DNA of 1,251 bases from Naegleria gruberi (taxonomy: Eukaryota), in the NCBI GenBank assembly GCA_000004985.1, contig GG739477.1. The stretch is one strand, 5' to 3'. Of this stretch, positions 6 to 1,009 are shown in pieces (positions within the stretch are counted from its first letter, which is position 1; each line of letters starts with the position of its first letter). Made by a program: the position numbers and the translations under genes. A model generated the notes under the pieces. It had not been told where the DNA came from. It ran no database searches and saw only the letters and a list, made by a program, of their open reading frames with translations.

Positions 6-138
6 CTTGTTGACTAGTGTCACCCACTTTTGGGCTTGTATGAACGACTCTGCATTGGTAATATCATACACCACAAGAGCTGCATAAGCTCCTCTAAAGT
101 ACATTGCTGGCAATGATTTGTATCGTTCTTGTCCACTA
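6..138 (-). CDS. Rab5/Ypt5-subfamily small GTPase, exon 3, partial ((T)[44 protein letters not shown]). The gene continues past the window edge.
   Basis: Minus-strand translation matches Rab5 '[41 protein letters not shown]' and yeast Ypt52 '[24 protein letters not shown]'. The acceptor tttatAG is at 140-139. An AAG|GTAAT at 8-1 looks like the next splice donor, so the exon probably ends at 6. Alternatively the exon runs to position 1. The G4 (NKxD) and G5 motifs and the C-terminal Cys prenylation motif must lie outside the window. Confidence 0.8.
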
Positions 139-457: not shown

Positions 458-659
458 TGATTGGCTATTTTTTTAAATTTATCATGTTCATGATTACTGG
501 TGGAAATGATTTGTCAGCTTTGTTCCGATGATAGATATTGGCCCATGTAAAATTCATGATCAATTACTGTAAATGCAAATATGGAAAAGTACAAAATGAT
601 TTTAAAAACATTTTGTTGCAATAAGAGGAGTATTGTGGAAATGTGTTAAAAACATTTGT
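458..659. promoter_or_regulatory. Divergent intergenic region: putative Pol II promoter / 5'UTR of the Rab5-like gene and 5' flank of the tRNA relic cluster
   Basis: By position only: it lies between the ATG (457, minus) and the first tRNA-derived fragment (660, plus). AT-rich, with an A/T run TTTAAAAAAATAG (minus) about 15-25 nt upstream of the ATG and a CCAAT (minus, 540-536). No consensus element is clearly identifiable. Confidence 0.3.
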
Positions 660-682
660 AAGCTGGCGTAGCTCAGTCGGTA
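660..682 (+). pseudogene. Truncated tRNA-Ile 5' fragment: exact 23-bp copy (aagctggcgtagctcagtcggta) of positions 930-952 of the intact gene
   Basis: Perfect 23/23 direct repeat that includes 1 nt of 5' flank, the acceptor 5' strand, the D-stem and the D-loop (A box). Similarity stops abruptly at 683, which is AT-rich with T4 runs at 695-698 and 703-706. There is no B box or 3' half. Confidence 0.8.
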
Positions 683-706
683 TTATATTTAATAATTTTA
701 AATTTT

Positions 707-763
707 AACGTAGCGCAGTCATTTAACGTTGCGTTAATTAATTGGTCTGTCATTTAATTCAAA
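707..763 (+). pseudogene. Decayed tRNA-Ile-like copy (5' half 707-740 plus T-arm-like 741-760), non-functional
   Basis: By-eye alignment to tRNA 935-996: aacgtagcgcagtcatttaa-cgttg... vs ggcgtagctcagtcggtagagcgttg... is about 70% identical, and attggtctgtcatttaattc vs attggtc-gccggttcgatcc. Most differences are G>A or C>T. The A box is degraded to TAGCGCAGTCA and the B box is destroyed (catttaattc). Confidence 0.5.
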
Positions 764-884
764 ATTGAAATTGACACATCGCTCTCTATCAATAAAATTC
801 TGACGTAGCTCTTTCAATAAACGTTGCTATAAATATATATACATACAAATGTAATTAACGCAACGTTAAATGACTGCGCTACGT
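708..884. repeat. Perfect 33-bp inverted repeat (arms 708-740 and 852-884) separated by a 111-bp AT-rich spacer
   Basis: The reverse complement of 708-740 (acgtagcgcagtcatttaacgttgcgttaatta) equals 852-884 exactly. Pairing breaks at 707/885 and 741/851. The arms contain the internal palindromes AACGTT and TTAATTAA and are themselves tRNA-5'-half-like. Confidence 0.9.
800..827 (+). pseudogene. Third decayed tRNA-Ile 5'-half-like fragment (ctgacgtagctctttcaataaa-cgttgc)
   Basis: Aligns to tRNA 933-961 (ctggcgtagctcagtcggtagagcgttgg) at about 21/29 identities. Four of the mismatches are G>A transitions, plus one 1-nt deletion. The cgtagctc core is intact. Confidence 0.45.
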
Positions 885-938
885 GATTAGTTATATTAGA
901 GAATTATTAAAGTATTAAATGAAGAATGCAAGCTGGCG

Positions 939-950
939 TAGCTCAGTCGG
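939..950 (+). promoter_or_regulatory. Pol III internal promoter A box (TAGCTCAGTCGG)
   Basis: Matches TRGCNNAGYGG at tRNA positions 8-19. Confidence 0.7.
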
Positions 951-982
951 TAGAGCGTTGGTCTAATAAGCCATTGGTCGCC

Positions 983-993
983 GGTTCGATCCC
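983..993 (+). promoter_or_regulatory. Pol III internal promoter B box (GGTTCGATCCC)
   Basis: Matches GGTTCGANTCC at tRNA positions 52-62. Confidence 0.7.
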
Positions 994-1009
994 GTCCGTC
1001 AGCAGATAA

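Follow-up and report, generated by a model that had tools for sequence, protein, structure and literature searches.

How did a perfect inverted repeat, whose arms resemble one half of a tRNA gene, come to lie in the short intergenic stretch upstream of such a gene? In this study, we analyze this repeat within its window, by which we mean the whole stretch of DNA presented above, 1251 bp of eukaryotic nuclear DNA with a GC content of 33%. We consider a mutational scar, left by the copying or repair of DNA, the most likely explanation, ahead of a mobile element or a regulatory device. The features on which the argument is built are collected in Table 1.

Table 1. Features of the window and of the related contig L008, with the evidence for each
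Feature	Position	Strand	Remarks
Rab5-like GTPase, first three exons	388-457, 204-336, 6-138	-	GT-AG introns of 51-65 nt; Pfam Ras
Fragment Z (possible fifth fragment, strongly decayed)	617-660	+	642-660 against reverse complement of 844-862, 16/19
Fragment A	657-682	+	Direct copy, 26 nt, of tRNA positions -5 to +21 (25/26 identical); blastn E = 6e-7
Fragment B	700-740	+	Aligned to tRNA positions 6-38; weak continuation to about 760
Outer flank of left arm	700-707	+	AAATTTTA, against AAATTCTG at the flank of fragment C, 6/8
Left arm (core of fragment B)	708-740	+	ACGTAGCGCAGTCATTTAACGTTGCGTTAATTA; from repeat search and alignment to the tRNA
Spacer, AT-rich	741-851	.	GC 0.28; contains fragment C; no ORF of at least 30 aa
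Fragment C	795-835	+	A third, diverged version of the arm unit, lying within the spacer and oriented like B
Imperfect inward continuation of the repeat	841-851 against 741-750	-	8/10 pairing plus a 1-nt bulge at G851
Right arm (fragment D)	852-884	-	Exact reverse complement of 708-740
5' flank of the tRNA-Ile gene	885-931	+	885-926 aligns with L008 1-46, p = 0.016
Intact tRNA-Ile(AAU) gene, source of the fragments	932-1004	+	ARAGORN Ile(AAT); Rfam RF00005, 59.9 bits against a gathering threshold of 29
Genes of contig L008	47-119; 207-277; 564-1469 (in L008)		tRNA-Ile; tRNA-Gly(GCC); intron-less BTB/KCTD-like gene

Anatomy of the repeat and its surroundings

The repeat search recovered two arms that are exactly complementary at all 33 positions (708-740 against 852-884) and are separated by 111 nt, as an earlier note on this DNA had described them. 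Their length is far beyond chance, which bears out a further claim of that note: when the window was shuffled 60 times with its dinucleotides preserved, the longest perfect inverted repeat had a mean length of 11.9 bp and never exceeded 20 bp, against the 33 bp observed. Moreover, a search for the arm allowing three mismatches returned only two sites, the two arms themselves, and none of 200 shuffles yielded any. The region as a whole has a GC fraction of 0.32, the arms 0.39 and the spacer 0.28, and the longest ORF inside the 177-bp unit formed by arms and spacer (708-884) has at most 27 aa. The outer limits of the repeat are sharp, its outward continuation past 33 bp being not significant (shuffle p = 0.31). 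Inward, blastn extends the match to 41 of 44 positions (708-750 against 841-884), an extension that is weak (shuffle p = 0.17).

The earlier note had suggested folding 700-892 as a check, and this predicted stable RNA hairpins on both strands, at -65.8 kcal/mol on the plus strand (z = -10.1) and -68.9 kcal/mol on the minus strand (z = -9.1). Folding of the segment 683-926 as DNA gave -46.2 kcal/mol (z = -7.0). Of the two structures which that note had envisaged, a hairpin is plausible in single-stranded DNA or in RNA, but extrusion of a cruciform from duplex DNA is unlikely with a spacer of 111 bp. The tRNA-like motif that it quoted was read correctly, being cgtagcgcagtc at 709-720 against cgtagctcagtc at 667-678 and 937-948. 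Its reading of 700-707 as aatttta has to be amended to aaatttta, which is 8 nt long.

The repeat is located within a 475-bp intergenic stretch that separates the start codon of a Rab5-like GTPase gene from the tRNA-Ile gene, the two genes being directed in opposite directions. The Rab5-like start codon lies 251 bp from the left arm and its transcription is directed away from the repeat; the tRNA-Ile gene is followed by a TTTT terminator at 1010-1013. The spliced Rab5-like product of 112 aa finds its best matches among Ras/Rab5 proteins with 64-70% identity. Its G1 motif is unusual, GSSSTGKT, and splicing at the acceptor 139/138 would make its G3 motif DTSGQ. When exon 3 alone served as query, the matches had only 62% identity and came from an unrelated organism with a GC content of 55% and no tRNA nearby, and ten ORFs of the window were absent from a collection of 15 billion proteins.

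A 26-mer taken from the anticodon arm of the tRNA and used as a query led to 10 metagenome loci. Only one of the ten, on contig L008, carries an identical 73-nt tRNA-Ile, and it also has the same ten bases 3' of the gene. With regard to the tRNA itself, its anticodon stem has a U:U opposition at the top, which all ten loci share because the exact-match search with the 26-mer forces it, and a C:U mismatch in the T stem is common only to the window and L008 among the ten. The BTB/KCTD-like gene of L008 has Naegleria proteins as its sole named relatives (43% identity), and the contigs retrieved for it reached no farther upstream. Though L008 reaches only 46 nt 5' of its tRNA gene, not far enough to reach the place of an arm, the resemblance of 885-926 to that flank makes it look as if the right arm directly adjoins the native 5' flank of the tRNA gene. 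In another contig from the metagenomes, L007, which is AT-rich (33% GC) and comes from another eukaryote, thirteen tRNA genes are packed into 1.9 kb (1729-3560).

A local family of tRNA-Ile fragments and their relative ages

As judged from the alignments, the arms are members of a local family of fragments from the first half of the neighboring tRNA-Ile(AAU) gene. The left arm corresponds to about positions 6-38 of the tRNA, and the arms terminate exactly at the anticodon loop. In fragment B the anticodon loop survives as the remnant TTAATTA, with the AAT triplet retained, and farther on the fragment aligns with the ATTGGTC of the variable region. Fragment C is identical to B at 31 of 41 positions over 700-740 (76%; blastn E = 8e-6) and at 25 of 33 in the arm core (803-835); it retains CTGaCGTAGCTC, a stretch closer than B to the tRNA 5' end, and matches the tRNA with a blastn E of 0.013. 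The blastn similarity between arm and tRNA (E = 0.02) is modest taken alone. In Smith-Waterman comparisons of the arm units with tRNA-Ile against shuffled sequences, B obtained p = 0.002 and C about 0.0005 or under, and among 102 distinct tRNAs from the fetched loci, the tRNA-Ile of the window was the best match to both B and C. The p values and this ranking uphold the derivation of the arms from the 5' half of tRNA-Ile that had been proposed from the sequence. The arms have no match to RF00005 even at E <= 10, which marks them as fragments and not genes.

The similarity between B and C does not stop at the edge of the arm. It runs 8 nt farther out, through the flanking octamer, which suggests that B is part of a longer repeat unit and not the terminus of an element; the octamer match has an estimated binomial p of about 0.01-0.06 and is weak by itself. 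Fragments C and D together form a quasi-palindrome around a 16-nt spacer, and thus a second, imperfect hairpin (-15.4 kcal/mol, z = -3.9).

Fragment A differs in character. It contains the A box and lacks the B box, it is followed by runs of four T at 696-699 and 703-706, and together with its source at 927-952 it forms a direct repeat that brackets a 244-bp segment (683-926) holding the entire inverted repeat. The five bases directly before the tRNA gene of the window, TGCAA at 927-931, are absent from L008, and fragment A has TGTAA; the fact that A carries this TG(T/C)AA leader, which the L008 copy lacks, indicates that A was copied locally, from the gene in the window.

All of the fragments are 5'-only, without T arm or B box, and they are clustered inside 320 bp. 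The match listed for fragment Z has p = 0.003, a post hoc and weak value. The 8-mer CATTTGTA occurs both after the right arm, in the orientation of that arm, and before fragment A. This 8-mer and the 16/19 match may represent a fifth, decayed fragment or chance. In the same neighborhood there is a perfect 12-nt direct repeat, TTAAAAACATTT, at 602-613 and 646-657, its copies 44 nt apart, and its motif TTAAAAACA is seen again at 374-382.

The fragments can also be ordered by age. A multiple alignment of B, C, and D with the tRNA revealed that the three have lost the same nucleotide in the D-loop region, carry several G-to-A changes in common, and read TTGC in place of TTGG. These common changes indicate descent from one copy that had already diverged, and hence an old arm sequence. 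Of the 33 core positions, 8 differ between B and C, and from this level of identity (25/33) we calculated a probability of about 1e-4 that two equally old arms would be identical at 33 of 33. Since B and C have kept only 25 of 33 positions in common and B and D all 33, the identity of B and D must be recent. The recent identity of the arms that had been postulated earlier is thus found to sit on an older, diverged family. Fragment A shows none of the changes seen in B and C and is young relative to both.

Origin of the inverted repeat

Fragment D is an inverted copy of B, 144 bp away from it, and B is still intact. We put at an even chance the reading that the repeat is a short templated inverted duplication, or a homogenization of its arms, brought about by fold-back priming or template switching. 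The earlier note had also named recent inverted duplication or homogenization as the origin, and the tRNA derivation of the arms, their recent identity, and the lack of a target-site duplication lead us to favor it as well. The precedent in yeast is a process at breaks, in which an end folds back and pairs through an imperfect inverted microhomology of 10 bp, leaving a 41-nt loop; Pol delta then extends it by 2 to about 150 bp of copied sequence, mostly 5-34 bp, and the other end is joined via 0-5 bp of microhomology, so that the inverted repeat is lengthened (PMC11724301). In the course of replication, template switching makes the imperfect arms of inverted repeats identical and longer (PMC8604942; PMC8794818), and it is reported to favor short spacers (PMC8604942).

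Applied to this locus, B and C would be old copies of tRNA-Ile, diverged from the tRNA and from each other, and D would be a recent and exact 33-nt inverted copy of B, produced in a single step when DNA synthesis followed a wrong template. By one route, a resected break end or a nascent strand ending near 851 would fold back, anneal near 741-750, and copy from 740 to 708, after which the new end would be joined to the native tRNA flank at 885. By another route, the inverted repeat would be older and originally imperfect, and a template switch would have rewritten one of its arms to match the opposite arm. Fragment A might be a second short templated patch of a similar kind, laid down in direct orientation. 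Several features of the locus bear on this proposal. B and D present an exact inverted copy whose template is retained in cis, and the template arm appears native to its context, the similarity of B to C over 700-740 extending beyond the boundary at 708 (weakly, if only the flank with its 6 of 8 matches is considered). The stretches 741-750 and 841-850 are a candidate for the microhomology that primed a fold-back copy; their match is not significant (p = 0.17) and leaves the extra base G851 over. The junction of D with the native flank at 885 has no microhomology, and the loop required, about 90-111 nt, is longer than the 41 nt documented in yeast. The anatomy and the relative ages can be read directly from the alignments, and the copying event is what we infer from them.

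A mobile element would be expected to leave other traces, and these were sought at the boundaries of the repeat and in sequence collections. A scan of all boundary offsets with k = 2-12 detected only 3-nt AT-rich matches and the palindromic ACGT, in agreement with the earlier statement that no target-site duplication flanks the repeat. A 4-bp target duplication of ACGT was considered and rejected, for the internal copy C has an ACGT like that of the arm tip, and these four bases align with the tRNA, which makes them part of the repeat unit and not of a duplicated target. The exact 33-mer had no match in metagenome contigs, and a 25-mer and a degenerate 24-mer of the arm were absent from viral contigs, all of these being collections without the host genome. 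Among 185,579 prokaryote genomes, a degenerate arm pattern gave a single match, by chance, in a Paraburkholderia MAG, and the arm was absent from L008, L011, and L012, about 2 kb of contig sequence from the same or a sister organism. Because the searched collections do not contain the host genome, this absence says little on copy number. A sister, orthologous, or allelic locus without the inverted copy was likewise not found in these collections.

The main alternative is that the 177-bp unit is a MITE or foldback-type DNA transposon with tRNA-Ile-derived ends and with fragment C as an internal subterminal repeat, which inserted upstream of a Pol III gene at a distance of about 47 bp, and we consider it unlikely on balance. 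Its size, its perfect 33-bp terminal repeats, its AT-rich non-coding interior, and its gene-proximal site fit the description of such elements (PMC5172404), the identity of its arms is greatest at the outer ends and falls off toward the inside, a pattern common to many terminal inverted repeats, and its right end lies 47 nt from the tRNA +1, in the position class of Pol III-directed elements (PMC5006619). However, a target-site duplication is missing though perfect arms imply a young insertion, the arms match the adjoining gene best among the 102 tRNAs, which would be a coincidence if the insertion were unrelated to it, and the similarity between B and C passes the supposed terminus. The lack of a second copy in the metagenome, viral, and prokaryote-genome collections and in about 2 kb of related contig sequence also speaks against it, if weakly, as the host genome was not included. 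The foldback-type element raised in the earlier note gained no positive evidence here, the 33-mer being found nowhere else in the searched collections. It is a long shot that 708-884 or 683-926 represents a tiny foldback family as yet undescribed, whose ends mimic the A-box half of a tRNA, which would home to tRNA genes via Pol III factors or homology, and whose transcripts would give a perfect 33-bp double-stranded RNA with tRNA-Ile 5'-half sequence. Partial-tRNA direct repeats are a hallmark of integrase-mediated insertion into tRNA genes in prokaryotes, and here a 25/26 direct repeat of this sort brackets 244 bp with an inverted repeat inside. On this reading the 26-nt repeats would be the duplicated site of attachment or targeting, and what is left of a site-specific insertion would be 683-926, a shrunken element with inverted recombination sites; eukaryotic Dada transposons, too, target the A box of tRNA genes (PMC3706591). 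We judge this highly improbable, since the 244 bp hold no recombinase or transposase gene, Dada elements make duplications of 6-7 bp and have no terminal inverted repeats (PMC3706591), 26 nt is too long for the duplication made by a DDE transposase, and 885-926 resembles the native flank of the L008 tRNA and is probably not foreign. A pair of tRNA-derived SINEs was rejected on finding no body homology past 33-44 nt, no tail, and no B box, and an inverton, or site-specific inversion switch, was rejected for want of a recombinase and of any evidence.

The two remaining rivals differ from these in that one denies the repeat as a natural structure and the other concerns its use. Amplification chimeras are typically inverted fold-back copies, and the window, at only 1251 bp, and the related metagenome contigs of 1.1-1.5 kb suggest low coverage; the repeat could then have entered a low-coverage contig either with a chimeric inverted read, such as strand-displacement amplification may produce, or through a mis-join at short repeats. 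That it is such an in-vitro or assembly artefact seems very improbable to us, given that the spacer is unique, that both arm junctions lie inside otherwise colinear sequence, that a 33-bp repeat is shorter than a typical read and should not confuse an assembler, and that the older copies B and C show the locus to be truly repeat-rich. A selected hairpin-RNA gene, in which a transcript of 700-892 would be diced at its 33-bp stem into small RNAs, possibly related to tRNA-Ile, would be compatible with either origin of the arms, and is highly unlikely in our view. The predicted folds are very stable on both strands, transcripts of foldback repeats are known sources of siRNA (PMC4408798), and Rfam models of long-hairpin MIR families align with the region end to end. 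Nevertheless, no miRNA or hairpin family of Rfam reached its gathering threshold, the best being MIR8007 with 40.2 bits against 195 and the others scoring 31-40 against 74-140, and membership in such a family was rejected on score. These matches of 31-40 bits against thresholds of 74-195 fall on both strands and on several unrelated plant families, which indicates a generic hairpin. In addition, a stem in which all 33 pairs are Watson-Crick, without a G:U pair or a bulge, is what would be expected of a copy made at the DNA level rather than of long-term selection on RNA, the loop of 111 nt is large, the B box is degraded in B, and the runs of four T at 696-699 and 703-706 would stop Pol III starting from fragment A. 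There is no indication of a selected function for the repeat, and the small-RNA precursor raised in the earlier note gained no positive evidence.

Significance and comparison with known systems

The repeat is best classed as a fresh example of a known mutational product situated in a cluster of tRNA fragments, with a MITE-like element as the main alternative. If templated inverted duplication is the true origin, the locus offers a clean natural case of it beside a Pol III gene in a protist lineage that has been little sampled, and would show that perfect hairpins can originate in one step, a result that changes no concept. It is mildly unusual for one tRNA gene to have several 5'-only fragments of itself gathered directly upstream, which may reflect breakage or template switching that recurs at an active tRNA gene. 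The arms would form a 33-bp stem in single-stranded DNA or in a read-through transcript. It is possible that this stem pauses replication and favors further template switches or inversion of the spacer, or that it yields double-stranded RNA if transcribed. Should the arm turn out to be a dispersed mobile element that mimics a tRNA, or a source of tRNA-Ile-related small RNA, it would constitute a new link between repeats and tRNA genes.

The unit 708-884 can be set beside several known systems. It is like MITEs and Foldback elements in being 177 bp long, in having perfect 33-bp inverted ends, a small AT-rich non-coding interior and an internal repeat of the terminal motif, and in its location near genes. 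It is unlike them in that a target-site duplication is absent, a second copy was not found in the collections searched, its ends are homologous to the neighboring gene, and its homology to the internal copy extends beyond the supposed terminus. The direct repeat (25/26) is shared with integrase-type insertions, and the recombinase gene of such insertions is absent. Dada elements are DNA transposons tied to tRNA genes, including tRNA-Ile in Perkinsus, with TAGCTC in the A box as target (PMC3706591); the same TAGCTC stands inside the arm motif, and Dada's sub-terminal inverted repeats echo the target gene. However, a Dada element goes into the gene itself, duplicates 6-7 bp there, encodes a DDE transposase, and lacks terminal inverted repeats, whereas the present structure lies upstream of an intact gene and has a 26-nt direct repeat, no ORF, and long terminal repeats. 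The Dictyostelium element TRE5-A inserts about 50 bp upstream of tRNA genes (PMC5006619), a position similar to that of the right-arm outer end at 47 nt; the resemblance is positional only, as no reverse-transcriptase remnant, A-rich tail, or duplication is present here.

With hairpin-RNA and MITE-derived miRNA precursors (MIR8007, MIR4208, MIR6217, and others in Rfam) the repeat has in common a long perfect stem and a large loop, and it aligns with them from end to end below threshold. It differs from the Rfam precursors in its scores of 31-40 bits against 74-195 and in matching on both strands and across unrelated plant families. Closer to hand are tRNA pseudogene fragments and partial duplicates, to which A, B, C, and D are similar in being colinear with the 5' part of the adjacent tRNA-Ile and, in the case of B, in keeping the AAT; the present fragments are unlike them in being 5'-only and clustered, with one inverted and identical to another.

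Lastly, fold-back and template-switch products provide the comparison on which the favored reading is based. The present locus departs from them in its spacer of about 90-111 nt, against 41 nt in yeast and mostly <=70 nt in surveys, in the extra base G851 at the junction of primer and copy, and in that here we infer the event. On the other hand, like those products it consists of an exact inverted copy made in cis with the template retained (PMC11724301; PMC8604942; PMC8794818; PMC7954356), its 33-nt copy falls inside the 5-34 nt class and has a candidate, non-significant and imperfect, inverted microhomology of about 10 nt adjacent to it, microhomology is lacking at the junction on the other side, and what results is a perfect inverted repeat of greater length.
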